This document shows, in pieces, positions 1 through 13,957 of a DNA stretch of 15,696 nt. The notes under the pieces are model-generated. The model was not told where the DNA came from. It was given only the letters and a program-made list of their open reading frames with translations, and did not search any database. Source of the DNA: Nitrospiria bacterium (lineage in GTDB: Bacteria; Nitrospirota; Nitrospiria; SBBL01; JAADHI01); contig JBHHWW010000032.1 of the NCBI GenBank assembly GCA_046756725.1, forward strand, positions 1 to 15,696, in the 5' to 3' direction. Position 1 is the stretch's first letter. Each line of letters begins with the position of its first letter. A program made the position numbers and the translations under genes.

Positions 1-226
1 CAGGCGGTTCGATCAAATTGGTCGAGGAAGGCGCGTGCCGCCAGGTTGACGGCGGATATGTGGCCGGGGACAACTAAGTGTGAGGGGACAAACAAATGAA
101 CGAGAACGAAATCTCGAGAATTGTAGTTGACCGTGCACTGAAGGTTCATAAAAGGATGTTTAGGTAAAGTACGAGGACATTGTATTTGAAAGGGGATTTC
201 GGATTGCATTGTGAACAAGAAAGTGA

Positions 227-1534
227 TCATTGAGATGTCGGTCGATTCTTATGGACGACAAGGTGTTTCTTGTCCACTTCCTTTATTTTAAAGAAAATGC
301 CTGCTGCCAGGACAAGAATGAATATGATTGAAATTGCCAACCCCTTACGGCGGAACTGTAATTCCGCCAGGGCGACCTTGCCTGCAAGAACGGCTTCATC
401 AACCAAGCTTATTCCTTCCCGGGTCACTTCTTGCGTTTGATTTTCCGACAGACTGTGAACCATGGTGCGGGCCTTTATCAAAGCGTCCCCGGCATCTTTG
501 ATCTGGAAATTTGCTTCGCTTACTTCCATGCCGGCACGTTCGGCAGTTGAGACCAGACTATCTGCGAAGAGAATCTTGCTTTTGAGCCTGTCAATATGTT
601 GGCGCATGGCAACAGCAGCGAGGTATCCTTTAGAGTCCTCCTCATGGCACTCGATACAAATGCTGGAATCGCCGCCCCCGACCATGTCGTCCGTCGGATG
701 CTGAATATCGTGATTCCCGTGACAGGTCTCGCATTCCGGCAACTCGAGCGCTTCAAAAGCCGCGCGATGGGGGCTCTTCAAAAACAATTCGCTGTTGTTC
801 AGATGACATTGACCGCAGATGAAGGCGATGGAAGGAGCGTCCGGTGGCGAAGCGCCATGATTTCCGTGGCAATCATTACAGGCTGGCGCGGCTTGATCAC
901 CTTTCTCCAACAAAGTGACACCATGGACGCTTTGGCGATATTGAGCGACCTGATCAGTTAGAATATCATGCTCTTGCATATAACCCGCGTCCGCATGACA
1001 CTTGCCGCATGTTGCCGGGATATTCAACGGATAAACCGAGGAGCGAGCGTCTTTGGCATCGCGAATGCCATGAACGCCATGGCAATCGATGCAGGTAGCG
1101 ACTTTCGTATCTCCCTTTTGCAGAAGTTTGCCATGTGTGCTGGATCTGTAACGCTCAAATTGGTCCGTAGACATCCTTGGATTGAAGCGGTGCATATAAT
1201 TGGGGTCGCTGTGACACCTGGCGCAAAACTGCGGGATTTCATTTCGCGTTGGCACGCCAATGTATCCTTTTGCCGGATCCATGGATGCCTCCATATCCCC
1301 ATCTAATCCTAACGTCGCGTCGCCGCCATGACAATCTACACAAGATAAGCCCTGTTGGGCGTGTACATCGGTCTTCATTTCCTCTACGGGAACCGTCAAA
1401 TCATCGTCGATTTCCAAGTGGCAGGACACACAGCTATTTACCTCTCCAGATTGGGCCTCTTCCTGGGCTACGCTAGCATCAATCCAACATAGAAAAAGTA
1501 TGAATATCGAGATCGCAATTGCTCTATGTTGCAT
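227..1534 (-). CDS. Nonaheme c-type cytochrome with Sec signal peptide and C-terminal transmembrane anchor. The ORF track gives 227..1576, but the ATG at 1534 is the preferred start because it has a GAGAGGGAA Shine-Dalgarno 7 nt upstream and begins the signal peptide.
   Basis: Nine CxxCH motifs (CVSCH, CVDCH, CARCH, CIDCH, CGKCH, CNDCH, CGQCH, CETCH, CIECH), several in a CxxCHGxHG context. Signal peptide MQHRAIAISIFILFLCWIDASVA/QEE. C-terminal hydrophobic helix LAISIIFILVLAAGIFF followed by a basic tail. Confidence 0.85.
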   Translation of the reverse strand: MQHRAIAISIFILFLCWIDASVAQEEAQSGEVNSCVSCHLEIDDDLTVPVEEMKTDVHAQQGLSCVDCHGGDATLGLDGDMEASMDPAKGYIGVPTRNEIPQFCARCHSDPNYMHRFNPRMSTDQFERYRSSTHGKLLQKGDTKVATCIDCHGVHGIRDAKDARSSVYPLNIPATCGKCHADAGYMQEHDILTDQVAQYRQSVHGVTLLEKGDQAAPACNDCHGNHGASPPDAPSIAFICGQCHLNNSELFLKSPHRAAFEALELPECETCHGNHDIQHPTDDMVGGGDSSICIECHEEDSKGYLAAVAMRQHIDRLKSKILFADSLVSTAERAGMEVSEANFQIKDAGDALIKARTMVHSLSENQTQEVTREGISLVDEAVLAGKVALAELQFRRKGLAISIIFILVLAAGIFFKIKEVDKKHLVVHKNRPTSQ

Positions 1535-1556
1535 GACTGATTTCCCTCTCACACAG

Positions 1557-2693
1557 TTAAAAAGTCTGAGGTACAAGGTATGAGATTAGTGTCATGATGA
1601 TGATGTAAGCCAGGGCCAAGACGCCCAAAACAGTGACGAGTCTACCTGATTGACCGAGCCTGGATTTGCGATCCCAAAATGGCACCAACACCAACAGAAC
1701 ACCACTAACTCCAAAGCCAGCAATGCCTAATACTTCGCCATCGAGAAACAACAGTTTGGCCGGAATGAACTTCAAAGTTTGAAACATGAAAACAAAATAC
1801 CATTCCGGTTGGATGCCGGCGGGCGCAGGCGCGAACGGATCCGCCTTAACGCCAAGCTCCCAGGGGAAGAGCGCAGCGATGGCCACCAGAACCCCCAAAG
1901 CCAAAACCCAACCGAGGACATCGCGCAACAAAAAATTCGGAAAGAAAGGCATCGATCGTATCGGCTGACCACTCCTTTCTAAGCTTAACGGTACGCTCAT
2001 CCCCTGCTTTTGCACGACCCAAAGGTGGAATGCCAGCAATAGCGTGGCAATCATCGGCAGGACGGCCACATGAAAGCCAAAGAAACGGGTCAGGGTTGCG
2101 CCAGTGACATCTTCACCGCCGCGCAGGAACTTCAATAAGAATCCGCCGACAAGCGGCACAAGCGCTACGACTTCAGTGCCGACTTTTGTAGCAAAAAAGG
2201 CGAGCTCGTTCCACGGCAGCAAATATCCTGAGAATCCAAACCCTAATGAAAGAAAAAGCAGAAAGACACCACTGACCCACGTCAGCTCTCGCGGTTTACG
2301 ATACGCCTTCATGAAATAGACGCTGAACAAATGAATGAACGCCGCGGCGACCATTAAATTCGCCGACCAACTGTGAATCGAACGAATCAGCCAACCGAAA
2401 CGCACCTCCGTCATGATAAATTGAACACTTTCGAACGCGGCCTCCGCCGTGGGCCGATAGTAAAGCAAAAGCAAAATTCCCGTTATCACCTGAATGACAA
2501 AAAAGAACAACGTGATGCCGCCGAAATAATACCAGATGCTGTGGCGATGCATGGGAACACGTTTCTTTGCAAGGAAGGATTCCAGGGCACTGATGTCATA
2601 GCGTTCTTTGACCCAAAGTAATATTCGCTGTCCGATCGTTCCGTTCGACTGCGGGGATGGCTTCAATTGAGTTTCCTTAGGCATTTGAGCCAT
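1557..2693 (-). CDS. Cytochrome b of a Rieske/cytochrome b (bc/b6f-type) complex, with the cytochrome b6 and subunit IV portions fused in one polypeptide.
   Basis: Two His pairs spaced by 13 residues on transmembrane helices ([17 protein letters not shown] and [17 protein letters not shown]). A conserved [11 protein letters not shown]-type N-terminal segment. A PEWY motif (IQPEWYF) in the C-terminal subunit-IV-like half. Multiple hydrophobic helices. The 378-aa length fits a fused b6/SUIV. Confidence 0.88.
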
Positions 2694-2771
2694 TGTTTTT
2701 CTTCATCTCCTAATAGTGGCGACCTGCTAACTGTTTGAAACTTGCTTGCGGATTAGCTACCTCCGAATTCA

Positions 2772-3269
2772 TCAAGCTGTTTTCGTAACGACTATATCCT
2801 CCCCTCTAATCTCGACATTGTAGGCTTCTAAAGGACTGGGCTGCGGACCGGAGATATTCTTTCCGGTCAAATCAAAATGGCCGTTGTGGCAGGCACACCA
2901 GATATGCTTGAAATCCGACCGATACTGAACGGTACACTGCAAGTGCGTACAGATGGCCGTGAAGGCTACATACTCATCATTCTGTGTGCGAACCAGGATA
3001 CCCGGCTTGCTGCCGAATCGAAAGATCTTACCGGCATTTAACGCAAGCTCACCAACCCTTGCCGCGACCACGCTGCTCTGGACGGCCTCCTGAACTTTCG
3101 GAGGGATGATGAAATTGACGAGTGGGACAAATATCGCACCCAATGTTGTCAAAAGACCGCCGCCGAGCAAGAAGTTTACAAATCTTCGGCGGGGCATCTC
3201 ATGGCTTTGAGAACTTTCTTCTGCAGTTTCAGATAACCGATTTGGAGATTTTGACTTCATGGCAACCAT
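2772..3269 (-). CDS. Rieske [2Fe-2S] iron-sulfur protein with a TAT signal and membrane anchor.
   Basis: Twin-arginine motif PRRRFVNFLLGGG followed by a hydrophobic helix. Rieske box I CTHLQC and box II CACHNGH. An AGGAG Shine-Dalgarno 6 nt upstream of the ATG. It lies immediately upstream of cytochrome b. Confidence 0.88.
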   Translation of the reverse strand: MVAMKSKSPNRLSETAEESSQSHEMPRRRFVNFLLGGGLLTTLGAIFVPLVNFIIPPKVQEAVQSSVVAARVGELALNAGKIFRFGSKPGILVRTQNDEYVAFTAICTHLQCTVQYRSDFKHIWCACHNGHFDLTGKNISGPQPSPLEAYNVEIRGEDIVVTKTA

Positions 3270-3280
3270 TCCTGACTCCT

Positions 3281-4189
3281 CTACTCCTTCCTTGCATCAG
3301 GTTGCATCGTCTTATTTAGTGCAGCCAGTCCGGAAAAAGTACCCATGTTGAGAGCATCGGAGACGGTACTGGGAACCACCATCAAAGAGCCCTTCTCCTT
3401 CATCCCTTCATAAAGTATGTTCATTGCTCGAAGATGGAAGGCCGTGGGATTCTTTTCATAGCGTTTGGAAGCTCTTTCAAACTTCTCAGCGATCTCGACT
3501 TCAGCATCACCCAGGATGACCCGAGCCTGTTTTTCTCTTTCAGCCTGAGCCTTCCGAGACATAGCATCCTCGAGGTCGGCAGGGATCACCACATCGCGGA
3601 TTTCCACCGACCTCACCGAGATTCCCCAATCATGCGTACGTTCATCGATGATGATTCGGAGTTGCTCATCGATCGCCTCTCGACCCGTCAGCATATCTGC
3701 AAGCATGGTCTTTCCGATAACATCTCGCAACGCAGTCTGGGCCGCCCAGGCGACTGCGTCGTTATAGTTTTCCACGTTGAGTGCTGCTTTTTGGGCATCA
3801 TGTACTTGCCAAAACAGAACAGCATCGACATTGACAGGAACCGTGTCGTGAGTTAGTGTCTTTTCAGCCGCAAATCCGGTAGCTCTCACCCGTTGGTCGA
3901 GCCACATGACTACCCGATCAATCATTGGAATGACCCAGAAAAGGCCAGGGCCTTTCAAACCAATAAACCGCCCCAGACGCAGGATTACTGCCTTTTCCCA
4001 TTGATTTGCCAGCCTTGCTGTGAGGGAAATGACGAAACCTAGCGGAAGGCCGATGAGAAAGACAAGAGTCCGCGCTACTGCATATTCTGGGCGTGGCGCT
4101 AATACCAGACCCAAAACTATGACCATTGTCCACACGGCAGCCAAAATGGCGAAGCTAATGATATTATACCCAAAGAATTTTGGTCGCAT
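3281..4189 (-). CDS. SPFH/band-7 (stomatin/prohibitin-like) membrane protein.
   Basis: Two N-terminal hydrophobic segments followed by the stomatin-type core EKAVILRLGRFIGLKGPGLFWVIPMIDRV. A C-terminal Ala/Glu/Lys-rich coiled region (KAQAEREKQARVILGDAEVEIAEKFERA). A strong AGGAGG Shine-Dalgarno upstream. Confidence 0.85.
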   Translation of the reverse strand: MRPKFFGYNIISFAILAAVWTMVIVLGLVLAPRPEYAVARTLVFLIGLPLGFVISLTARLANQWEKAVILRLGRFIGLKGPGLFWVIPMIDRVVMWLDQRVRATGFAAEKTLTHDTVPVNVDAVLFWQVHDAQKAALNVENYNDAVAWAAQTALRDVIGKTMLADMLTGREAIDEQLRIIIDERTHDWGISVRSVEIRDVVIPADLEDAMSRKAQAEREKQARVILGDAEVEIAEKFERASKRYEKNPTAFHLRAMNILYEGMKEKGSLMVVPSTVSDALNMGTFSGLAALNKTMQPDARKE

Positions 4190-4311
4190 GTTCAGACCTC
4201 CTTTTTCGATTTGAACACTCCCGGATTTAGTTTGTTACAATTGACTCAAAACAAGAACGACCTCGGGTAGACTCATCCCGCAAGCCCCGTTAAATGGTCT
4301 GTCTCGCCGCC

Positions 4312-5535
4312 CTAGTTTTCCGTTTTCCCCGACCTCGAGAAAGAGCGCAGGTAGGCATATAAGTTTGCCATATCCCTGCCGCTCAATTCCTGCCATTTCA
4401 TTTTTCTTTCTTGGAGTATCTTGTGCATTGCCGGAGCGTGATTCCACATGGCCGTAATCATTGCAAGAGGCGAGTCCAGTGCGCCGAGTGCTGCCAGGTC
4501 TGCTGAGATTCTTGCACCTTTTCCCTGCAACGAATGGCAAGTCAGGCATGCTTTCTCATTAAGGATTTTGTATCCCTCCTTGGTATCTCCTGGGGGGTCT
4601 TTGAGCTTGAGCCCATAAATATAGGCAATGACATCCGCTATTTCTCCTTTCTCGAAGACGGGAAAAGCAATACTCTCTCTTTTCATGACCTCCCACATTT
4701 GGGGACCGTGATTCCACATCTTACCAGCGATTTGTGTAACAGAGTAATTAAGGTCGAGCTCAGTAAAATCAGGACCCAAATTGTTGCCATCAGCGCTAGC
4801 TGCATGGCACTTCATGCACCCCTTTTTCTCCGCAATTCTGTAACCAACGACAGGATCGCCGAATGCAAAATCCCCGGGGTGGTCTCTTCGAGGAGACATG
4901 AAAGATCTTATGCCCGCAGCAAGATTGACGATCTCATCATCCTCGAATTCTGGTCGTTTGACTTTATGTTTCTCAAAGATTTCAAGCAGATTTGGTCCGT
5001 GATTCCACAAGGCTTCAGCAAGTTTTATGGGTGCCATATAGTCCTCTATTGCACTAATGTCAGGGCCGACGTCACCACCGACGCCACCAAATTTATGACA
5101 GGTTACACACCCCTTGGATTTCAAAAGCTTCCTGCCTGAAAATTCGATGCCGGGCTCTCCAAGATATCTGAAATAAGCAAGATAGGAAATAAGCTGCGAC
5201 ATTTCCTCACTGTTGAGTTCCGTGAACTGATAACCCGTCTGTCGCATTTTTTGGGACATACTTGGGAAATGATTCCACATCAGCGCTGCTAATTCGAGAT
5301 AGGTGCCATAAAATTTCTGCTTGCCCAGGTCAGGGCCGCCATTGCCATTTTCTCCATACACGGCATGGCATTGGTTGCATCCCTTTTGCCTGAATACTTC
5401 CCGCCCCTTCCATGGCGATTCCAACGATGTGCTTATCTGGGCGCTGACCGAGGAGAACATGAGCACCAGCAACACAAGTGTGAGGCACGGGCCGAAATGG
5501 CTTGATTCCGTTCGGCGTTTGTTTATTGCTAACAT
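4312..5535 (-). CDS. Tetraheme c-type cytochrome made of four tandem class-I (monoheme) cytochrome c domains, with a Sec signal peptide. The ORF track gives 4312..5580, but the ATG at 5535 is the preferred start because it begins the signal peptide and follows a GAGGGA Shine-Dalgarno.
   Basis: Four CxxCH motifs (CNQCH, CVTCH, CMKCH, CLTCH). Each is followed by a GPD(L/I/F) motif and then M/LWNH(F/G/A)P, a candidate Met sixth ligand, and a C-terminal YL-type helix, giving four repeats of roughly 100 aa. Signal peptide MLAINKRRTESSHFGPCLTLVLLVLMFSSVSA/Q. Confidence 0.85.
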   Translation of the reverse strand: MLAINKRRTESSHFGPCLTLVLLVLMFSSVSAQISTSLESPWKGREVFRQKGCNQCHAVYGENGNGGPDLGKQKFYGTYLELAALMWNHFPSMSQKMRQTGYQFTELNSEEMSQLISYLAYFRYLGEPGIEFSGRKLLKSKGCVTCHKFGGVGGDVGPDISAIEDYMAPIKLAEALWNHGPNLLEIFEKHKVKRPEFEDDEIVNLAAGIRSFMSPRRDHPGDFAFGDPVVGYRIAEKKGCMKCHAASADGNNLGPDFTELDLNYSVTQIAGKMWNHGPQMWEVMKRESIAFPVFEKGEIADVIAYIYGLKLKDPPGDTKEGYKILNEKACLTCHSLQGKGARISADLAALGALDSPLAMITAMWNHAPAMHKILQERKMKWQELSGRDMANLYAYLRSFSRSGKTEN

Positions 5536-5542
5536 AGTTCCC

Positions 5543-6763
5543 TCACTTGCTTTGATGAATGCTCCCGGTTTCAGGGGCATGACATTGCTGAACTCCTTCG
5601 TAACAGGATTTCATCAATCTTGCTCTCTTACATTGGCTACAGAGTGATAGCGTCTCGAAGAGGGCATCCCCACATACTTCTTTCGAAAAAGATGCCAGAA
5701 CCCGCTGCTGTATTTTGTCTGGAGAATAGACCACACCGCAACCGGAACATCTAGTTGGCTGAGTTGCTGCTACTTCAATCCACTTCTGCTCTGTGTCTGC
5801 TTCTTGGTGGTCGTATCCAGGAAACAACTTGATAGCTTCTTGTGGACACAGAGCTAAACATTGCTCGCATCCGCTGCACAGCTCCGATTTGAAAAGAAGT
5901 CGAATGCTTTGCTGATCGCTGGTAATCCGAAACGCTTCTGTAGGACAGCCACTGACACATGCTCCACAGAGAATGCAATCGTAAGAGTTGACCTCTAAAA
6001 TACAACCTGCCTCTTTCCCCATGATTTTCCCACGAAGTTGGTGAACCAATTCCTTTTCATGCCTGGAACTTGCCGGCGAATTCAGGACTTTTGCTTCCTG
6101 CTTATGAATCTCGTCTCTGAGGTTCTCCAGGTCACCTGAGACGAAGTCTCGCAATACCGCGGCTAATGAGCGATAAAAAGGTGAATCGGTGCTCGACTCA
6201 ATTTTATTACTGAATTCGGAAGCCCATACACCCAGATGTTTCACTAGAAAGTCATACTGTTTGAGTAGATATTGCAGCGCTATTTCGGCTCTACAATTGT
6301 GCCTGGCTTCATACTCTCTTTCACACAAAAGGGCCATGTATTCCAGTTCAGCTACAATATGATCAGGCAAATCATGAAAATCATGCTTCATAAAGAAGCC
6401 TTCCAAACCATATTCTCTACAGATACTGAATATCTGTTCATCCAAGACCTGATGATTTGGACTTCTATAAATGGATTCGTATGGATGAGCTTTTGGCGAA
6501 TAGGGCCCGACAAAAAGACGGTTGTATTCGATTTCCAAATTCTGCCAAAAGGTGTACTCATTATTTTGGGCGTTCGTTTCAATGAATTGTAATAATTCTG
6601 CGCTCGGCTTTCGATACGCTGAAAAAAGATAATCTCTTGTCTGTTGGGAAAGTATTTCCATCAGTGAGTGTTCATTGTTCGAGGAAAACAACGCCCGGTG
6701 TGGCCGCCCAAATGCCACGGCCAAACCTGCATATATTTCCATCCTGATCTTAGCTCCAACCAT
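5543..6763 (-). CDS. TorD/DmsD-family redox-enzyme maturation chaperone fused to a C-terminal 2x[4Fe-4S] ferredoxin domain with an additional Cys-rich tail.
   Basis: The N-terminal half carries the TorD signatures EYNRLFVGP, HPYESIY and LPDHIVAELEYMALL. The C-terminal half has CILCGACVSGCP and CSGCEQCLALCP (the CxxCxxCxxxCP pattern of 4Fe-4S sites) plus CSGCG...CSQCKRAR...C..C.H. A GGAAGGA Shine-Dalgarno sits 7 nt upstream, and the start abuts the upstream gene's stop as TGAATG. Confidence 0.8.
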   Translation of the reverse strand: MVGAKIRMEIYAGLAVAFGRPHRALFSSNNEHSLMEILSQQTRDYLFSAYRKPSAELLQFIETNAQNNEYTFWQNLEIEYNRLFVGPYSPKAHPYESIYRSPNHQVLDEQIFSICREYGLEGFFMKHDFHDLPDHIVAELEYMALLCEREYEARHNCRAEIALQYLLKQYDFLVKHLGVWASEFSNKIESSTDSPFYRSLAAVLRDFVSGDLENLRDEIHKQEAKVLNSPASSRHEKELVHQLRGKIMGKEAGCILEVNSYDCILCGACVSGCPTEAFRITSDQQSIRLLFKSELCSGCEQCLALCPQEAIKLFPGYDHQEADTEQKWIEVAATQPTRCSGCGVVYSPDKIQQRVLASFSKEVCGDALFETLSLCSQCKRARLMKSCYEGVQQCHAPETGSIHQSK

Positions 6764-8449
6764 TCAAAGTTCCTTCCACTGTACAATGCGAGTCTGGGCT
6801 GCAGGAGCAAACATGTGCCACGGACTTGAATTTGTTCTAGGTTGTATCAGGCAAATTTGCAAAGGAATCATACACAATAGGAGAATTCCCGTGAGCCATT
6901 TGACAGGGGCATAATCGTACATCCAGGTGGAAAAACCCCAGACCATCAATCCAATTCCCAACATAAACGTTCCAATCACCATTATTCTCTTTGCTGTCGG
7001 CGGCATTTCGATTCGGGGGAGAAAAACGTGTTTTTCGCTGTTCTTGATTTCATAGTCTTCAGGCAGCTCGATGACAGGCAGCAACTTGATCAGAATCGTA
7101 AAGAACAGGATACCAAAAAGCCAGGTCCCCAATACAACGATAAGTTCGCTTATGGTCGGAACATACGGAGCAACTTTGTAGGGTAGTAATGGATGATAAA
7201 ATGATGGGACAACGATGAGAAAACGAATCATCCACAGGGCCATGTTTATCAGAATTGATGCAAATACGGTCAGGCTGATGCTGCAGATTTTGGGATTACA
7301 GCCTTGAATAAACAGCAAAAAGAACGGAAAAAGTAATCCGCCTAGTAAAGTAGGCCAGGTCAATATGGCAAATCGTCCCCAGAGATAATCAGTCCAGACT
7401 TTATGGTCGGCTTCAGGGGCAGAGTATAATCCCGTCAGTATTTCACTAAATAGAAAATACATATAGAGCCAGGTTACAAAGCCCAGGAAAATACCCAATC
7501 CTTTGAACATGCGCGCCGGAAGAAATTCATCCCAGTCATAAATTTTTCGTAACACCGCTATGATGATAATCATTGCTGAAAATCCAGAGACAATTGCTCC
7601 CAAAACGAAATAAGGCGCCATAATAGGATTAAACCAGCCCGGTCTACCCGGCTGCAGTCCGAATACAAAGCCGTAAACCGAATGCACCGAAACCATGATG
7701 GGTAAAATGATCACCGCACACCACCAGATTGTGCGGTTATGGGTTTCCTGCACCTGTCTTGTGTCTCTGTAACCAATGGCCAAAATTCGATAAAGCCAGC
7801 GTTTTTTGGGTATTAACATAGAAGAAATGCAAAGATCTCTCCGCATGGCTAAATACAGGTAAACCGAGCTGCCTATGACATACCATGTAATAACCGTCAT
7901 GGACCAGACAAACGGGGCATGGATGCGACCGTGCAGGACAACATTGACCAAGAATCTATCTGGCCTGCCAACATCCAACATAATATTTAAGACCGCTGCG
8001 GTCATAGAAACCAGCGTAACCAACTCAGCAATCCTCGCCAGAGGTTTGTATCTCTCTAAATTCATGATCCGGACACTGGCCGAAATGGCAATGCCAACAT
8101 GGCTGATTCCGATGAGGTGAATAATATTGGCGACAATAACCCCCCACATGGCTCCCTTGGTGCTAAGACCCTGTACACCATGACCGACTAAAGTCTGATT
8201 AGTAATCACATACATCCATCCCGAAAGCAGCAGTAGTAATCCCCCTATAAAGAAATAGAATCCTCTGCTGGTGCTCAACAATGGCCGGAATGCACTTTCA
8301 AGATTCATTACTGCTTTAGAATCCAAATGGTCTCTGTTCCAGGTAAAATCTGGAGCTTTGAAAGTAGAATTTACTTTTGCTTCATGCAACCCGCTTTGCC
8401 GCTCTCCTGCAAAAGGTGATGCTTGTTCTGTCTTGGTCCGCAACATCAT
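6764..8449 (-). CDS. NrfD/PsrC-family integral membrane quinone-interacting subunit of a complex iron-sulfur molybdoenzyme. It is a long form with roughly 10 or more predicted helices.
   Basis: About 60 N-terminal cytoplasmic residues, then FYFFIGGLLLLLSGW and WGVIVANIIHLIGISHVGIAISA, typical of the NrfD family. Hydrophobic helices continue through a C-terminal extension (…TWMYDYAPVKWLTGILLLCMIPLQICLI). The start overlaps the upstream ferredoxin-subunit stop as ATGA. Confidence 0.8.
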   Translation of the reverse strand: MMLRTKTEQASPFAGERQSGLHEAKVNSTFKAPDFTWNRDHLDSKAVMNLESAFRPLLSTSRGFYFFIGGLLLLLSGWMYVITNQTLVGHGVQGLSTKGAMWGVIVANIIHLIGISHVGIAISASVRIMNLERYKPLARIAELVTLVSMTAAVLNIMLDVGRPDRFLVNVVLHGRIHAPFVWSMTVITWYVIGSSVYLYLAMRRDLCISSMLIPKKRWLYRILAIGYRDTRQVQETHNRTIWWCAVIILPIMVSVHSVYGFVFGLQPGRPGWFNPIMAPYFVLGAIVSGFSAMIIIIAVLRKIYDWDEFLPARMFKGLGIFLGFVTWLYMYFLFSEILTGLYSAPEADHKVWTDYLWGRFAILTWPTLLGGLLFPFFLLFIQGCNPKICSISLTVFASILINMALWMIRFLIVVPSFYHPLLPYKVAPYVPTISELIVVLGTWLFGILFFTILIKLLPVIELPEDYEIKNSEKHVFLPRIEMPPTAKRIMVIGTFMLGIGLMVWGFSTWMYDYAPVKWLTGILLLCMIPLQICLIQPRTNSSPWHMFAPAAQTRIVQWKEL

Positions 8450-9138
8450 TAGAATCCTTCTTTCAAATAAATGACTTTGGGGTGTGTTCCCATCTCTTCC
8501 AACAAATGAAAAGCCCGCGAACTTCTGGCCAACATTGACACGGTACTTTCCGGATCATCCAGATCGCCAAAAAATCGTGCGCCCCCGGGACAAGTCTGAC
8601 AGCAGGCTGGCAGTTTTACGACCTCTTCGTCGCGGATCTTTCGTTTTTCCTTCTGTGCCCGCTCTTTCACTTTGTGGATGCGCTGTATGCAGAAATTGCA
8701 TTTTTCTACCACCCCTTTACATCGAACGGACACCTCCGGATTTAGCTGCTTATCCATTGGTAAAGGCCATTCTGACTGATACCAGTTGAAAGCCCGAGCT
8801 GAATAAGGACAGGCACACATACATAGGCGACATCCAATACAACGGTTGTAAATCTGCCCAACTATTCCTTCTTGATTCTTGTATGTGGCATGAACAGGAC
8901 ACACTTTGATACAGGCAGGATTTTCGCAATGCATGCATGGGCGCGGAATAAAATGAGCCTTCGCATAAGGATATTCTCCCTCTATGCTCGAGATGACTTC
9001 TGTCCAAAAAATCGCCCGCCCCTTCTTAGCCTCCACAGGACCGACAAATGGGATGTTGTTCTCTGCCACGCATGAAATCGTGCAAGCCTGACAGGCTGTA
9101 CATTTATCCAGATCAATGACCATACCCCATTTTGCCAT
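8449..9138 (-). CDS. Four-cluster [4Fe-4S] ferredoxin electron-transfer subunit of the PsrB/DmsB/ArrB type.
   Basis: N-terminus MAKWGMVIDLDKCTACQACTISC. Four Cys groups: CTACQACTISC, CMHCENPACIKVCP, CIGCRLCMCACP and CNFC...CCQTCPGG. An AGGAG Shine-Dalgarno upstream. 229 aa. Confidence 0.88.
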   Translation of the reverse strand: MAKWGMVIDLDKCTACQACTISCVAENNIPFVGPVEAKKGRAIFWTEVISSIEGEYPYAKAHFIPRPCMHCENPACIKVCPVHATYKNQEGIVGQIYNRCIGCRLCMCACPYSARAFNWYQSEWPLPMDKQLNPEVSVRCKGVVEKCNFCIQRIHKVKERAQKEKRKIRDEEVVKLPACCQTCPGGARFFGDLDDPESTVSMLARSSRAFHLLEEMGTHPKVIYLKEGF

Positions 9139-9177
9139 GGACCATCTCCTTTATGAATGCTCCTCCATCCAGAGTCG

Positions 9178-11607
9178 CTAAGCTTTATATACTTTGACTT
9201 TGGTTGAATAAAAGGAACAAAGTCCTCCCAGGTAGTCAAACTCAGGAGTAAGAATTTCATTTGGGTTCACACCAAGTTCCTGAGCCCAGCGTCCATATTT
9301 CGTATGCCCATATTCGAAGGGCATACTGACAATATCTGGTTTTGCGCCAGCAAAGAGTCTGGCTTCGACTTTGATCTTACCAATTTTCGATTCTACCCAA
9401 ACTGAATCGCCATCATGAATCCCCAGTTCTGCGGCACTTTGGGGATTTATTTCTAACCACGGTCCCCATTTCATTTTGACCTGTAGACCGAACGACTCTT
9501 GCAGCCAGGGTAGGTTGGCTCCTCTTCCTTCAGCATGGGTCATCGTCTTGTAGGTACTTAAATAGAATGGAAAATCACCATGGTTGCCAGTATATCTTAC
9601 TGGCTCATAATGTGGCATAAAAACCCGGTCGCCACGAGCTTCGAGTTTCAATCCACGCAATATTTCTTCCCACTCCTGCTCTATCTCAGAACCGTGTTCG
9701 TCTGCTTGTTTTGCTGCAAACTCCTCTAATTTCTGTTGCATAAGTTGAGAATAAAATTCAAACTTTTTTGATGGGGTAGCAAATACCTCTTCCCATTTAC
9801 CGTATTCATAAGGAGGATTCCACCATCCGCCATTCTTCAGAAGTTCATCCCAGAAATCTTCAGAATCCCGGGCCATGATTGACCCTTTTCGAGCACGAAG
9901 AACACCTTGTACTCGATATTCGATCATCTCCTGATAATCTTCCCAGGGGAAGCTCGCCGCTACGCTTCCTCCAATGGCTTTGGCTATTTTGATCATTACA
10001 TCCGCTGTGTTCATGGTATCATAAAGTGGCTTGACTACGGGCTGTCTGATGCCGAAAAGTGGAAATCCGACACTGGGATCAATTTCGTCATCCTGCCATC
10101 TTTCGAGATAGGTATGATCGGGCAGGATGAGATCAGCCTGACTTGTGGCCTCATCCATAAAAGGCGAAAAACTGACGATGAACGGAATATGAGAAAAAGC
10201 CCTGTAGTAACGTTCAACTCGAGGAGCTGAAAACAGCGGGTTTGTATAATAAAGAAAAAGCGTGTCTATGGGATAAGGTTTCGCCTGAGTAATATTGTCT
10301 GGCAAGGCGGAATAAATATTTGCAGTAAAAGGGAATTTGGCTGTTCCTGCGCTGTCAACACGAGGCATGGACACGCCCTTTTTGCTGATGTCATCCTGGA
10401 CGACATCAGGCCAGGGTTGGAATGGAGGTCTTCTCTGTTTCAGAACGCCCCCTGGCGCATCTATGCTTCCCACGAGCGCATTTAGAGAATGAATGGCCAT
10501 ACAATTAAACACGCCATTTGACTGCATACTGACACCCCGCACACCAGCGGCAAAAGCTGGCTTCGTTTCGGCAAATTCCCGAGCAATTTTCATTATGGTT
10601 TTGGCTGGCACACCCGTTATTTCAGTCACGATTTCTGGCGGATAGTCTTCCCGGACCATGTTCTTGAAACCTAAATGGATATTGCCCGTCTCATCCTGCC
10701 AATCTTCAAAACCAAAAGTGCGCTCCTCAATGAAGCTGCGGTCATATAACCCTTCAGAAACAATGACATGAGCCATTCCTAAGGCCAGAGCGCTATCTGT
10801 CCCATGATTTATCGAAATCCAATCATCCGCCTTCGAGGCGGTTACTGAAAAACGTGGATCGACACAGACAATTTTTGTCCGAAAACCAGGTCGCCCTCTT
10901 CTCATGTGACCATACATGCGCAAGAGCATGGTTGTAGGGCGCCAGGCTTCTAGCAGGGAAGCGCCAAAACAGACCAGATAGTTGACGTTTTCCCAGTCGT
11001 ATGCCGCATAATTCGCCCAACCTTGTGTAAAGTAGTGGGCTAGTTTTGAGCCATCGGATAGAATGGAACTATGACCTAAATCATTAGGTGAGCCGTAGGC
11101 GGTCAAAAACCTGTTCATGAGGTCGTGCATGCTTCCGCGATAGCGTCCACCCATAATTGCCAGGGTATGCGAGCGCTCTTCATTTCTTATTCTTTCCAAT
11201 CTTTCAGCCACGAGACTTATGGCCTCACCCCAGGAGATGGCTACCCATCTGTCAGAACCTCGCTCACCTACCTGTCTCATTGGGCCCTTGATGCGATCGG
11301 GATCGTAAAGGACCTGAAGTCCGGCCTGGCCCTTGGGGCACAAGCGCCCTTGATTGGTTGGATAGGAAGGATTCCCCTCAATTTTGACGGCATTGCCATT
11401 CACAACTTTCACTTGAATCCCGCATCCGCCAGGACATTGCAGGCAGATACTTTTTAGCCATTTTTCCTCATCAACTTCTATCCTGCCTTCTCCAGCTCTC
11501 CCCAATGCCTGCGTAATTCGAGTGGGTCGACAGCCGGTTCCTAAAGCAACAGTGCTGCCGAAAATACCGGTCATCTTCAAGAATTTTCGTCTCGTAATTC
11601 TTGACAT
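9178..11607 (-). CDS. TAT-exported molybdopterin (Mo-bisPGD) oxidoreductase catalytic subunit of the PsrA/PhsA/ArrA-like clade. Substrate is not determinable from the sequence alone.
   Basis: Twin-arginine signal SRITRRKFLKMTGIFGSTVALGTGC. N-terminal [4Fe-4S] motif CLQCPGGC...RLCPKG (C-x2-C-x3-C-x~27-C). 809 aa. A perfect AGGAGGAG Shine-Dalgarno upstream. Followed by FeS, NrfD and TorD-like genes. Confidence 0.85.
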   Translation of the reverse strand: MSRITRRKFLKMTGIFGSTVALGTGCRPTRITQALGRAGEGRIEVDEEKWLKSICLQCPGGCGIQVKVVNGNAVKIEGNPSYPTNQGRLCPKGQAGLQVLYDPDRIKGPMRQVGERGSDRWVAISWGEAISLVAERLERIRNEERSHTLAIMGGRYRGSMHDLMNRFLTAYGSPNDLGHSSILSDGSKLAHYFTQGWANYAAYDWENVNYLVCFGASLLEAWRPTTMLLRMYGHMRRGRPGFRTKIVCVDPRFSVTASKADDWISINHGTDSALALGMAHVIVSEGLYDRSFIEERTFGFEDWQDETGNIHLGFKNMVREDYPPEIVTEITGVPAKTIMKIAREFAETKPAFAAGVRGVSMQSNGVFNCMAIHSLNALVGSIDAPGGVLKQRRPPFQPWPDVVQDDISKKGVSMPRVDSAGTAKFPFTANIYSALPDNITQAKPYPIDTLFLYYTNPLFSAPRVERYYRAFSHIPFIVSFSPFMDEATSQADLILPDHTYLERWQDDEIDPSVGFPLFGIRQPVVKPLYDTMNTADVMIKIAKAIGGSVAASFPWEDYQEMIEYRVQGVLRARKGSIMARDSEDFWDELLKNGGWWNPPYEYGKWEEVFATPSKKFEFYSQLMQQKLEEFAAKQADEHGSEIEQEWEEILRGLKLEARGDRVFMPHYEPVRYTGNHGDFPFYLSTYKTMTHAEGRGANLPWLQESFGLQVKMKWGPWLEINPQSAAELGIHDGDSVWVESKIGKIKVEARLFAGAKPDIVSMPFEYGHTKYGRWAQELGVNPNEILTPEFDYLGGLCSFYSTKVKVYKA

Positions 11608-11632
11608 TATCTCCTCCTGATAACGGTCATTC

Positions 11633-12307
11633 CTAATAATGACAGACTAAGCAATCATTGTCGGCATCCATTTTCTCATGACAATCCATACAGGTCTCCA
11701 TTTTCATTTTCATTTTGAGCCCGAACGACATGGAAGCCATTTCCACCCTGACGTGACAGTCGCGACACTCCACCTGGCTATTCGTCACATGTCGTTCATG
11801 CGAAAAGTGTGTATCCCCGGTTAAATAGTTGTTGACCCTTACCCAATTAATCATCTGCCCGTCATTGATATAGACCATGAGCTTACTTTCTTCCGGATGA
11901 TCTGAAATGGTCTCCTGATGGCAAATTATGCATACATCTATGTTGGGGATTGAAGCCCGATGGCCTAGAATTGATTTTCTGTGGCAACCAACACACGGTC
12001 TACTCTCAGGTCTTTCTCGAAGATTTGTCTCCAGGAATATCTGATGGCAGCCCGAGCAATCTTTGATTCTGGGGGTATCCTCTACGGCTTCATCAAAACT
12101 TCCATGACATTCCATACACTCACCTTTTTCCAGTTCCTCTGGAATTTCCCCAAGGAGTTCCTCATGCATGGCAAAATTGGCTTTCTTATGGTCGCCTTTT
12201 GCAAAATATTGAAAATGGATTTTGTGATTGAAATCTATTGGCTGTTCAGATTCGTAAGTACATCCGAGGAGAAAAAGCAAAATCACTTTCATTATGATAG
12301 TCTTCAT
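11633..12307 (-). CDS. Heptaheme cytochrome c3-like lipoprotein. The ORF track gives 11633..12325 using a TTG start, but the ATG at 12307 or GTG at 12310 is preferred because it is preceded by GAGGA and begins a lipoprotein signal.
   Basis: Seven CxxCH motifs (CMECH, CSGCH, CVGCH, CIICH, CRDCH, CMDCH, CLVCH). A lipobox (MKTIIMKVILLFLLGC). His-rich spacers (FNHKIHF, THFSHERHV) of the kind seen in c3-family multiheme proteins. It is the first gene after the 200-nt intergenic region. Confidence 0.8.
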   Translation of the reverse strand: MKTIIMKVILLFLLGCTYESEQPIDFNHKIHFQYFAKGDHKKANFAMHEELLGEIPEELEKGECMECHGSFDEAVEDTPRIKDCSGCHQIFLETNLRERPESRPCVGCHRKSILGHRASIPNIDVCIICHQETISDHPEESKLMVYINDGQMINWVRVNNYLTGDTHFSHERHVTNSQVECRDCHVRVEMASMSFGLKMKMKMETCMDCHEKMDADNDCLVCHY

Positions 12308-12377
12308 CACATTGTTTTTCCTCAAAATCGGTTTTAGAATAATGAAAATGCCAGATTGCGCCAGTTTAGCTGAAAAT

Positions 12378-12393
12378 TACAACTTTCATGCCA
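12378..12393 (-). promoter_or_regulatory. Candidate sigma-54 (-24/-12) promoter for the cytochrome/molybdoenzyme operon.
   Basis: The minus strand reads TGGCAT-GAAAG-TTGTA against the consensus TGGCAC-N5-TTGCA. Spacing is correct, but the conserved -12 GC is GT. It lies about 55-70 nt upstream of the first gene start and directly downstream of a sigma-54 activator gene. Confidence 0.3.
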
Positions 12394-12465
12394 TGTCAAT
12401 CGCAATGAAATTAACCAGACGAAAACACAGAAGTTAGGAGGGTGTGGGATAAACAGACGACACGC

Positions 12466-12489
12466 TGACGGTTTGACGATTAGCCGTCA
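12466..12489. promoter_or_regulatory. Inverted repeat TGACGG-N12-CCGTCA with additional TGACG half-site copies. It is a candidate enhancer (UAS) for the NtrC-type regulator.
   Basis: A perfect 6-bp inverted repeat about 85 bp upstream of the sigma-54 candidate. Direct TGACG/GACGA copies occur at 12456..12460 and 12475..12479. Confidence 0.3.
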
Positions 12490-12526
12490 TCTCAAAAAGG
12501 ATAGCTTTTGATAAGCACTTGAGTAA

Positions 12527-13957
12527 TCAGACATTTAGAGGATGATCATATGGTGACGTTGAATCGTCATTTGTTGACGGATTATCGAGGGATCTCAAAC
12601 GGGCAAGTTTGTCGCGCAGAGTTGTACGGGGAATGTTCAGTAGTTTGGCGGCTTTTACCTGATTCCCCTCTGCTTCTTTCAAAGCCCACAAGATTAATTT
12701 AGCTTCCACTTCCGAAACGGCCTCGGAGAGATTAATCTGTTTGTTTCCACCAGGATCAAGAGAAACCATGCCATCCTGCGCGTGGACATCTCGAATGTAG
12801 TCGGGCAGATCGTCAACGGTGATGCGATCTGATTTGGAAAGTGTCACTGCATGTTCCACGATATTTTCCAGCTCCCTGACGTTACCCGGCCAATCGTGCC
12901 TGAGTAGTACTTTTTGTACTTCATGAGTAAAATAATGTAAGGATTTATTTCTCTCTTTGCAGAGTTTCTTCAGAAAATGCCGGGCCAGAAGAGATATGTC
13001 CTCGCGGCGCGCCCTTAATGGTGGCAACTCAATCTTAACCACGTTGAGGCGATAATAAAGGTCTTCTCGGAATTTACCTTCCGAAACCATCTGTTGAAGG
13101 TCTTTTTTTGTCGCGCAGATCACGCGCACGTTCACTTTTAAGGGCTGCTCACCTCCCACCCGTTCGAAAGCTCTCTCTTCGATCACCCTGAGGAGCTTGA
13201 CTTGAAGCTCGACCGGAATATCATCCACGTCATCCAGGAAGATTGTACCTTTATCCGCTAACTCAAACCGTCCGCGTTTGCGGCGCAACGCTCCGGTAAA
13301 GGCACCCTTTTCATGACCGAAAAGCTCACTTTCGAGGATTTCACGATTCAAAATAGCGCAGCTTAGTGTTATGAAAGGACCATATTTTCTGTGGCTATTG
13401 TAATGAAGTGCATTGGCCAGAAGCTCCTTTCCGGTTCCCGTTTCTCCTTGTATGAGAATGCTCGTATCACTGTCTGCCACTGCATCAGCCTTCTCATATA
13501 TGGTTCGCATGGCCCTGGAGTGACCGATGAGATTCTGATAGCAATACTGAGACTGGATTTTCTTCTGCAAAGTCGCAATTTGTACTTTACCCTTGCGATA
13601 CTCCATCAGGCGATTCAGTTTGATGGATAACGCATCATAGGGGAAAGGTTTGGTAATATAATCGTAGGCCCCCTCTTTCATCGCTTCTACAGCATTCTCG
13701 ATCGTGCCGTAGGCCGTCATCATAATCACTTCTATCTCGGGTGAAAGTCTCTTGATTTCTCTCAAGAAAGTCAACCCATCCATAGATGGCATCCGCAGAT
13801 CCGTAACCACCACATCAAAGGAACTCTTCCTGAGGTAGTCAAGACCTACAAACGCATTCTCTCCAATCTCGACACTGTATCCCTCGTCTTCCAGTTGTGT
13901 CTTCAAGGTCACGCGTTTCAGCTTTTCGTCATCAATTACAAGAATTTTGCCTTTCAT
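12527..13957 (-). CDS. Sigma-54-dependent response regulator (NtrC family enhancer-binding protein).
   Basis: Receiver domain (VVVTDLRMPSMDG). AAA+ sigma-54 activation domain with Walker A GETGTGKE, the GAFTGA motif (ESELFGHEKGAFTGA) and Walker B IFLDDVDD. C-terminal Fis-type HTH (AAKLLNIPRTTLRDKLARL). The start overlaps the kinase stop as ATGA. Confidence 0.93.
   Translation of the reverse strand: MKGKILVIDDEKLKRVTLKTQLEDEGYSVEIGENAFVGLDYLRKSSFDVVVTDLRMPSMDGLTFLREIKRLSPEIEVIMMTAYGTIENAVEAMKEGAYDYITKPFPYDALSIKLNRLMEYRKGKVQIATLQKKIQSQYCYQNLIGHSRAMRTIYEKADAVADSDTSILIQGETGTGKELLANALHYNSHRKYGPFITLSCAILNREILESELFGHEKGAFTGALRRKRGRFELADKGTIFLDDVDDIPVELQVKLLRVIEERAFERVGGEQPLKVNVRVICATKKDLQQMVSEGKFREDLYYRLNVVKIELPPLRARREDISLLARHFLKKLCKERNKSLHYFTHEVQKVLLRHDWPGNVRELENIVEHAVTLSKSDRITVDDLPDYIRDVHAQDGMVSLDPGGNKQINLSEAVSEVEAKLILWALKEAEGNQVKAAKLLNIPRTTLRDKLARLRSLDNPSTNDDSTSPYDHPLNV

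Follow-up and report, generated by a model that had tools for sequence, protein, structure and literature searches.

Does a locus that joins a molybdoenzyme-like subunit and an NrfD-family membrane subunit to a Rieske/cytochrome b complex encode a molybdenum-dependent reductase, or an electron-transfer system in which that subunit is no longer a catalyst? The question is raised by contig JBHHWW010000032.1, from a metagenome-assembled genome (MAG) labelled Nitrospiria, of which a stretch of 15,696 nt, hereafter the window, was analysed. Twelve co-directional genes run across the window on the minus strand, and ten of them, tightly packed at 227..12325 and numbered here G1 to G10 in the order of transcription, form a respiratory set. 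The predicted domains of all ten score above Pfam cut-offs, and a motif scan counted 20 CxxCH motifs (seven in G1, four in G6 and nine in G10), in agreement with the tight gene order, domains and 20 c-type hemes described in an initial annotation made from the sequence. Pfam and NCBIfam searches also bore out its cytochrome-first order resembling Qrc and alternative complex III (ACIII), its FeS0 Cys motif, its TorD-type chaperone and its two quinone-reactive modules. The initial annotation further held that the molybdoenzyme-like subunit, G2, 'probably binds' a real Mo cofactor, and this is not supported as worded: the annotation had missed the loss of the ligand Cys, for which G2 has Leu183; the partner subunits are ACIII-like; and G2 groups with Cys-less, cytochrome-associated lineages. 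Nor does the active-site sequence support the Mo-dependent hybrid oxyanion reductase that had been suggested. We propose, with about even confidence, that the locus encodes a sigma-54-controlled, quinone-linked cytochrome electron-transfer system built from two pre-existing modules that would act in sequence; our confidence in the direction of electron flow in this sequential model is lower than in its overall classification.

The observation on which this proposal turns is found in G2, the subunit expected to hold molybdenum-bis(pyranopterin guanine dinucleotide) (Mo-bisPGD).

9178..11607, minus strand: G2, subunit of the Mo-bisPGD family exported by twin-arginine translocation (Tat), Arr/Psr-like, assigned by Pfam and by alignment with ArrA 6CZ7

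G2 contains the Molybdop_Fe4S4, Molybdopterin and Molydop_binding domains (66, 121 and 59 bits in Pfam), a twin-arginine motif, RRKFLK, and an FeS0 motif of four invariant cysteines (C55, C58, C62 and C90). Among solved structures, G2 comes closest to ArrA of Shewanella ANA-3 (6CZ7), with a full-length match of 367 bits, and next to Thermus PsrA; the match to ActB reaches only about 50-60 bits. In the alignment with ArrA, HSSVCAEAHK pairs with HSSILSDGSK of G2, so that Leu183 occupies the position of the Cys that we take to be the Mo ligand of ArrA. In the alignment with PsrA, the ligand Cys lands in a gap. The Leu183 codon, read directly, is CTA at 11059..11061, at least two substitutions away from TGY, and Leu is also found at this position in the 82% and 79% relatives of G2 (HSSILS and HSSFLS). 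In addition, the PGTD motif reads HGTD (His268), an alteration confined to the window clade. Among positions invariant in the enzymes, Cys183Leu and Pro268His are the only clade-wide changes at functionally suggestive places. G2 stays below every NCBIfam cut-off (ArrA, 405 against 1600 bits; PhsA, 359 against 694; QrcB, 290 against 440), and assignment to Arr, Arx, Phs, Psr, Ttr or Qrc was dropped because no curated cut-off was reached.

To place G2 within its family, 97 related loci (L numbers below) were collected, and each was scored for the residue at the ligand position and for neighbouring genes. A scan of a genome collection gave 14 loci; a single-sequence query reaches close relatives only, and an alignment-based metagenome scan supplied more. 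Homologues of G2 number in the thousands in uncultivated Rokubacteria, Chloroflexota, Nitrospinota, Thermodesulfobacteriota and others. In this comparison of about 90 loci, an ActA-like cytochrome lies 370-700 bp upstream in 45 of the 50 testable loci that have neither Cys nor Ser at the ligand position, and TorD is rare there. Such a cytochrome was found in four of 17 testable Cys-type loci, one of these four being a neighbouring true ACIII operon on the opposite strand, and TorD was found in eight of 12 Cys-type (HSSIC) loci. The genes that keep HSSIC form one clade in a neighbour-joining tree. As to the position of G2 in a phylogeny, a point that the initial annotation had left to be settled, the tree makes the window clade sister to the largest Cys-less, cytochrome-linked clade, and no curated Arr, Phs or Psr cut-off assigns it to a named group. 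The window clade is exceptional in combining the absence of Cys with an upstream cytochrome and an intact TorD-ferredoxin. The ratio of G2 to G3 divergence is 1.73-1.76 in the window clade and about 1.7 in Cys-less clades, against a median of 1.08 in Cys-type pairs (0.85-1.57 at comparable divergence); this relative-rate test gives weak support to relaxed constraint on G2.

The Cys-type members show what the family looks like with the ligand in place. L017 (6281..16872) and L018 (6212..16173), 59-61% identical to G2, have TorD (with ferredoxin) and lie behind genes for a periplasmic binding protein (PF12974), a kinase (HisKA_3) and a regulator (GerE). A binding protein like AioX or ArxX with a two-component system is the layout of arsenic-oxyanion sensors (PMC5908839), and the clade of L017 and L018 probably consists of uncharacterised true oxyanion molybdoenzymes. 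Cys-type loci too have a strongly ActC-like NrfD protein (213 bits); therefore the whole G2 family is the nearest enzyme relative of ACIII-type modules. Ser occupies the Mo-ligand position in L030, L051, L057, L059 and L072 and in the proteins P0036 and P0044, several of them TorD-linked, and the family thus appears to include Cys-type, Ser-type and ligand-less forms. Family representatives score 299-336 bits against the QrcB hidden Markov model (HMM), below its cut-off of 440, and P0107, which belongs to the clade of L017 and L018 and is labelled ArxA by its submitters, reaches 410 bits against the ArrA cut-off of 1600. In L061 (9287..19773), a Cys-bearing G2 homologue is accompanied by a G1-like cytochrome, TorD and a tetraheme cytochrome like G6, so a Cys ligand and cytochrome wiring can coexist; Cys and a G1-like cytochrome occur together also in L056 and L080. 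L061 further has a zf-HC2 protein between its A and B subunits and FeoB downstream.

The partners of G2 were compared with the same known complexes.

11633..12307, minus strand: G1, heptaheme c-type cytochrome lipoprotein, ActA/QrcA-like, with seven CxxCH motifs and a Pfam Cytochrome_C7 (c7/c3-type) match
8449..9138, minus strand: G3, four-cluster Fe-S subunit without signal peptide, resembling QrcC and the C-terminal part of ActB (Pfam Fer4_11)
6764..8449, minus strand: G4, NrfD-family quinone-interacting membrane subunit of 561 aa with about 11 hydrophobic helices (Pfam NrfD; hydropathy scan)
5543..6763, minus strand: G5, cytoplasmic TorD/NarJ-family chaperone fused to a 2x[4Fe-4S] ferredoxin (Pfam Nitrate_red_del and Fer4_7)
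4312..5580, minus strand: G6, periplasmic tetraheme cytochrome with four class I cytochrome c domains (Pfam Cytochrom_C, reported in three stretches; four CxxCH motifs)
3281..4189, minus strand: G7, SPFH/Band 7 (stomatin-type) membrane protein with two N-terminal transmembrane (TM) helices (Pfam Band_7; TM scan)

G1 to G4 follow one another directly on one strand, with 39 nt between G2 and G3, which are not fused, and direct reading gave TAATG at the G3/G4 junction and TGAATG at the G4/G5 junction. The true start of G1 is the ATG at 12307, inside the listed open reading frame (ORF) that begins with TTG, and the protein has the signal MKTIIMKVILLFLLGC with the lipoprotein signal LLGC. Its best solved matches are the ActA chains 6F0K_A and 6BTM_A of ACIII (49 bits). 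G3 is likewise closest to the Fe-S domain of ActB (6F0K_B, 200 bits, against 128 bits for ArrB), and the solved matches of G4 are ActC chains only, at about 84-90 bits (6F0K_C, 90); G4 is thus ActC-like, with a C-terminal extension. G5 scores below the cut-offs of the TIGR03482 and TorD HMMs, and its homologue in L016 is intact (398 aa, 58% identity), having neither stops nor frameshifts. Beyond its recognised domains, G5 carries a Cys-rich C-terminal tail at residues 339-394 (C339, C342, C364, C375, C378, C387 and C394) with no Pfam assignment. For G6, no ActE match was detectable and the solved relative was only marginal. Its four domains each repeat MWNH-x-P about 35-40 residues past CxxCH, a motif that may supply the axial Met. 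G6-like genes adjoin the NrfD module in 14 related loci, mostly after NrfD and upstream of the module in L014, L041 and L085; L016 and L100 also have one by the NrfD module. The SPFH gene likewise follows the NrfD gene in L004, L080, L081 and L016.

Two further sequences were compared with the locus. An independent Logan assembly (L001) matches 9.2 kb of it with 100% protein identity, the first residue of the G1 and G5 queries differing because we had set it to Met. L016, which carries the 79% relative of G2, equals the window gene for gene up to the SPFH gene, where its contig ends.

Downstream of G7 lies the second quinone-reactive module.

2772..3269, minus strand: G8, Rieske [2Fe-2S] protein with a PetC-type TM anchor and the motifs CTHLQC and CACHNGH (Pfam Rieske)
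1557..2693, minus strand: G9, fused cytochrome b with N- and C-terminal parts, of the b6 plus subunit IV type (Pfam)
227..1534, minus strand: G10, membrane-anchored nonaheme c-type cytochrome (nine CxxCH motifs, signal peptide, and a TM helix at the C-terminus in the TM scan; Pfam)

G8 scores 73 bits against the NCBIfam PetC model (cut-off 250) and G9 245 bits against the cytochrome b6 HMM (cut-off 325). G9 has the heme ligands His107/121 and His208/223 and a PEWY motif, and the N-terminal Cys for heme ci is not present in its sequence. The true start of G10 is the ATG at 1534, which has a ribosome-binding site upstream and lies inside a listed TTG ORF. G10 stands right after cytochrome b, in the position of cytochrome c1 or f; no homologue of either was found among the window genes, and G10 has no solved relative. 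KSB1, Calditrichota, Acidobacteriota and unclassified MAGs contain many homologues of G9 (65-81% identity). The six contexts that were inspected (L099-L104) all have a Rieske gene first, then cytochrome b, then a multiheme cytochrome of 430-453 aa, and the trios of L099-L101 were compared with that of the window (identity for G8, 74-78%; G8 and G9 together, 74-80%; G10, 71-72%). Downstream of the trio, each of the six also has a polytopic membrane protein with DUF2339 and a cytochrome of the NapC/NirT type (for example, L100 12504..20712). Most continue with additional multiheme cytochromes, some of which carry a sorting domain for type IX secretion, and with CcmE or a putative barrel of the outer membrane. 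This island looks like a conserved and apparently uncharacterised extracellular electron transfer system. The window has only its first three genes; DUF2339 and the surface multiheme cytochromes are absent.

Is the juxtaposition of the two modules peculiar to this contig? A module like that of Qrc or ACIII is linked to Rieske/cytochrome b genes in at least five further loci (L100, L084, L087, L009 and L060). On one strand of L100, genes for a cytochrome, a Mo-like subunit, an Fe-S subunit, NrfD and a tetraheme cytochrome precede those for Rieske, cytochrome b and a multiheme cytochrome; the Mo-like subunit is 39% identical to G2, and the ligand region is fully degenerate. L084 and L087 share the same-strand arrangement of L100, with a GltD-like FAD/NAD(P)H Fe-S protein inserted ahead of the Rieske gene. 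This protein of 641 aa (Fer4_20, Pyr_redox_2 and 2x[4Fe-4S]; L087 16165..18090 and L084 16405..18330) comes after a class I multi-domain cytochrome, an arrangement that resembles the Rieske/cytochrome b complexes of anammox bacteria, for which NAD(P) reduction has been proposed. In L009, cytochrome b and Rieske lie upstream of the module, and in L060 the two are convergent. The G2 homologues in loci with the recurrent pairing are only 39-50% identical to G2 of the window. The very unequal divergence of the modules between the window and L100 indicates that they have had separate histories and been combined repeatedly, and this favours functional coupling over common descent of the whole operon. 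A literature search found no published description of the synteny or of the TorD-retaining, Leu-substituted clade, with partial precedents only, and a study of an Sb(III) oxidase held nothing that bears on the locus. This agrees with the initial annotation, which did not recognise the arrangement as a characterised complex. The pairing is not unique. The arrangement is real, recurrent and uncharacterised.

The operon is preceded by a two-component system and bounded on its other side by a convergent gene.

13954..15696, minus strand: sensor histidine kinase (Pfam HAMP, PAS, HisKA and HATPase), the 5' end of which runs off the window
12527..13957, minus strand: NtrC-type sigma-54-dependent response regulator (Pfam Response_reg, Sigma54_activat and HTH_8)
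12378..12393, minus strand: sigma-54-type -24/-12-like element TGGCATGAAAGTTGTA, found by eye about 70 nt 5' of the G1 ATG
4190..4311, minus strand: intergenic gap of 122 nt between G6 and G7
101..116, minus strand: weak intrinsic-terminator-like hairpin 3' of G10, from a consensus scan only
3..77, plus strand: tail of a convergent gene that the window start truncates, its last 24 codons reading GGSIKLVEEGACRQVDGGYVAGDN before the stop

The kinase has two CxxCH motifs before a TM helix (CxxCH and TM scan), which suggests a periplasmic redox sensor with c-type heme. A homologue with 83% identity occupies the same position in L016, and a pair of histidine kinase and sigma-54 response regulator is also found upstream of G1-like clusters in L005, L012, L014, L016, L060, L070, L085 and L089. 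The element TGGCATGAAAGTTGTA differs from the consensus TGGCAC-N5-TTGCW at two positions, with TTGT instead of TTGC, and is promoter-like, a candidate sigma-54 promoter. A strict sigma-54 pattern (TGGC-N8-TGC) misses it and gave only chance-level matches within genes. Sigma-70 promoter-like sites were at background (17 found, 21 expected), and terminator-like sites were somewhat over it (24 against 15), none of them in the intergenic gaps of the operon; the sole extragenic one is the weak hairpin after G10. The operon stops after G10, where this hairpin (116..101) and the plus-strand gene tail at 3..77 lie. By eye, the tail looks like the C-terminus of a short-chain dehydrogenase. Continuation past G10 into DUF2339 and surface cytochromes, as in L099-L104, was considered and is ruled out here by the convergent tail 150 nt downstream. 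An Rfam scan of the whole window (E<=1) returned no element, and hence no Mo cofactor (Moco) riboswitch, so RNA elements provide no argument for Mo use.

Which known system is the locus closest to? QrcABCD of sulfate-reducing Desulfovibrionales shares with it four subunits encoded in one order, in which a multiheme cytochrome comes first, a Mo-bisPGD-like subunit exported by Tat second, an unfused Fe-S subunit with four clusters third and an NrfD-type subunit last. The QrcA, QrcB and QrcC HMMs match G1, G2 and G3 (56, 290 and 275 bits), all below their cut-offs of 180, 440 and 400. Qrc is electrogenic, and QrcB is, like ActB, an established cofactor-less homologue (PMC6303296), a likeness to the B subunit of the window, which has no catalytic ligand. 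However, G1 has seven hemes instead of six, G4 matches ActC, a TorD-type chaperone, a tetraheme class I cytochrome and Rieske/cytochrome b are added, and G2 is far less degenerate than would be expected of a cofactor-less subunit. Among solved structures, G1, G3 and G4 are matched best, or solely, by subunits of ACIII (ActABCDEF), namely ActA, the ActB Fe-S domain and ActC respectively, and G6 may fill the role of the class I cytochrome ActE, a monoheme protein in ACIII. ActB has been placed sister to ArrA, and ACIII and Qrc are thought to descend from Arr-type molybdoenzymes (PMC10100899), a placement that the Arr-like G2 fits; in addition, an ACIII-like cluster with a four-heme ActE-like protein is known from MBNT15 (PMC9386147). 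The window differs from ACIII in that B1 and B2 are unfused, G2 is nearer to ArrA (367 bits) than to ActB, and FeS0 and TorD are present. ActD (PF11821) had no match among the window proteins, only one NrfD gene and no ActF is found, and no oxidase genes are adjacent in the window.

With Arr, Arx, Psr and Phs the window has in common the A-B-NrfD-TorD core, and G2 aligns with ArrA over its full length, keeping FeS0, HSS...K and GRY. It differs from them in the Leu at the ligand position, in the cytochrome partners and in a regulator pairing sigma-54 with a heme kinase, not an oxyanion sensor. Multiheme Rieske/cytochrome b complexes share with it a Rieske protein and a fused cytochrome b of the b6 type, after which a multiheme cytochrome stands where c1 would be expected, and the window departs from them by its NrfD-type partner resembling Qrc and ACIII. 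Haloarchaeal pNar NarBC and the anammox Rieske/cytochrome b complexes are examples of this type. Such genes also lie inside the nap cluster of Caldithrix abyssi (PMC5317091), and in Zixibacteria RBG-1, PetAB lies inside an Mtr-like multiheme cluster proposed for Fe(II) oxidation (PMC3903129). By their defining features, the locus is outside Qrc, ACIII, Arr/Arx and Psr/Phs, and on sequence grounds it is most like a Qrc/ACIII-type complex joined to a multiheme-type Rieske/cytochrome b complex.

How would such a system work? Module 1 would comprise G1 to G4, with G6 as a probable partner and G5 for maturation, and would form an unfused complex of the ACIII/Qrc type around an Arr-like subunit, the NrfD subunit G4 presumably having its quinone site on the periplasmic side. 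Module 2 would comprise G8 to G10, in which the nonaheme G10 would replace cytochrome c1, with the SPFH protein G7 as a membrane scaffold. Both modules would link periplasmic multiheme cytochromes with the menaquinone pool by electron exchange, and G2 would be mainly an electron-transfer or structural subunit, not an oxyanion reductase. In the most likely direction, module 1 would work as Qrc does, passing electrons from low-potential periplasmic hemes (G1) to the quinone pool, and the Rieske/cytochrome b complex would re-oxidise the quinol through a Q cycle and deliver electrons to G10 and G6, so that energy would be conserved between two periplasmic cytochrome pools. The kinase of the sigma-54 two-component system may sense redox state through its c-type heme. 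In this scheme, we infer the single transcript, the subunit contacts, the direction of the electrons and the absence of catalysis.

Several observations weigh against the sequential model with a non-catalytic G2. Of 102 positions without variation among Cys-type relatives and ArrA, the window clade has kept 94%, compared with 86% in the sister Cys-less clade and 47% in true ActB, and by our reading of the alignment the retained positions include the ArrA-like GRY, HSS and Lys, which presumably lie near the active site. The TorD-ferredoxin is intact in both the window and L016, which is unexpected if no Mo-bisPGD is inserted. The relative-rate gap to close Cys-type pairs is small, with enough overlap to make the test weak evidence, and the neighbour-joining tree of G2 is without support values, which weakens its placement. 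In addition, the QrcD model returned no match to G4, which is nearer to ActC, a subunit of a quinol oxidase; module 1 might therefore oxidise quinol, the two modules being parallel and not sequential. Lastly, the 122-nt gap between G6 and G7, which the initial annotation had pointed out and direct reading confirmed, could hold a second promoter.

The first group of these observations leaves room for a G2 that is a working molybdoenzyme, holding Mo-bisPGD without a thiolate, as AioA does, or through Ser184, in which case the cytochromes, NrfD and Rieske/cytochrome b would spread the electrons of a periplasmic substrate. AioA-type arsenite oxidases hold Mo without a protein ligand, and this precedent, together with the intact TorD and the positions kept, makes Mo-bisPGD binding by G2 possible. 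The 58% identity between the chaperones of the window and L016 points to constraint on G5; G2 retains FeS0 and the Tat signal; TorD-linked relatives have Ser at the ligand position; and the pairing of Cys with a G1-like cytochrome in L061, L056 and L080 indicates that cytochrome wiring alone does not mean loss of catalysis. However, Leu cannot act as a ligand to Mo, and the substitution holds throughout the clade, the only one in which PGTD has become HGTD; Ser184 is not clade-specific, as Cys-type relatives also read ICS. The window, moreover, lacks both a Moco riboswitch or other Rfam element and a substrate-binding-protein sensor like the PF12974 protein of the Cys-type relatives, and the partner subunits are ACIII-like. 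We therefore consider a catalytic G2 rather unlikely.

A doubtful prospect to a similar degree is that two independent units lie side by side. G1 to G6 would then be an ACIII-like quinol:cytochrome c oxidoreductase with a four-heme analogue of ActE, and G7 to G10 a separately transcribed quinol oxidase, a mobile cassette, the two being different routes out of the quinone pool, used for acceptors that differ in potential. In favour of separate histories, the trio is 71-80% identical elsewhere while G2 falls to 39% in L100, and L099, L102 and L104 have the cassette but no Mo-like module, and in L103 it lies beside a Nap-like cluster. The ActC-like G4, the MBNT15 cluster with its four-heme ActE-like protein and the gap before G7 are also as this account would have them. 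Against it, all genes are co-directional, and a consensus scan of the gap (4190..4311) found neither a terminator-like site nor a minus-strand sigma-70-like promoter site. The gap is partly conserved in L016, with a patchy alignment in which no element could be recognised. In addition, adjacency in at least five loci with G2 homologues as divergent as 39-50% identity is more than chance placement would give, and the SPFH gene follows NrfD in L004, L080 and L081, where there is no cytochrome b match, which indicates that G7 belongs to module 1 and bridges the gap.

Two other accounts are less probable still. It is improbable, and a speculation from sequence, that the window clade is a living intermediate between Arr and ACIII/Qrc, in which G2 would receive Mo-bisPGD through the TorD-ferredoxin, hold it without a thiolate and oxidise a periplasmic substrate, while a supercomplex of NrfD and Rieske/cytochrome b would cycle quinone, the flow from low- to high-potential hemes yielding proton-motive force twice. 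The class Nitrospiria, under which the source MAG is labelled, includes lithoautotrophs. The least probable account draws on this label, on the GltD-like FAD/NAD(P)H Fe-S protein of L084 and L087 with its presumed anammox likeness and on PetAB in the RBG-1 cluster to make the locus a lithoautotrophic device for reverse electron flow, from a high-potential periplasmic donor through class I and multiheme cytochromes and a backward-running Rieske/cytochrome b complex into the quinone pool, with the NrfD module as a downhill or balancing branch; but the window encodes neither an enzyme to oxidise a donor nor an oxidase nor an NAD(P)-linked subunit, its taxonomy depends on how a contig of 15.7 kb was binned, the closest relatives being unclassified 'bacterium' MAGs, and nothing in the sequence fixes the electron direction.

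For the G2 family, our data mean that it contains both true Cys-type enzymes and ligand-less, cytochrome-wired forms, with the window clade between them, so that the change from catalytic subunit to scaffold is open to direct test. Genes of this kind in MAGs are routinely labelled 'molybdopterin oxidoreductase', 'thiosulfate/polysulfide reductase' or even 'ArxA', and as a result sulfur or arsenic metabolism can be wrongly attributed to Nitrospirota, Rokubacteria, Chloroflexota and others. The repeated clustering of NrfD-type and Rieske/cytochrome b genes in distant lineages suggests that the two main quinone-site architectures, cofactor-less and cofactor-bearing, are functionally coupled.

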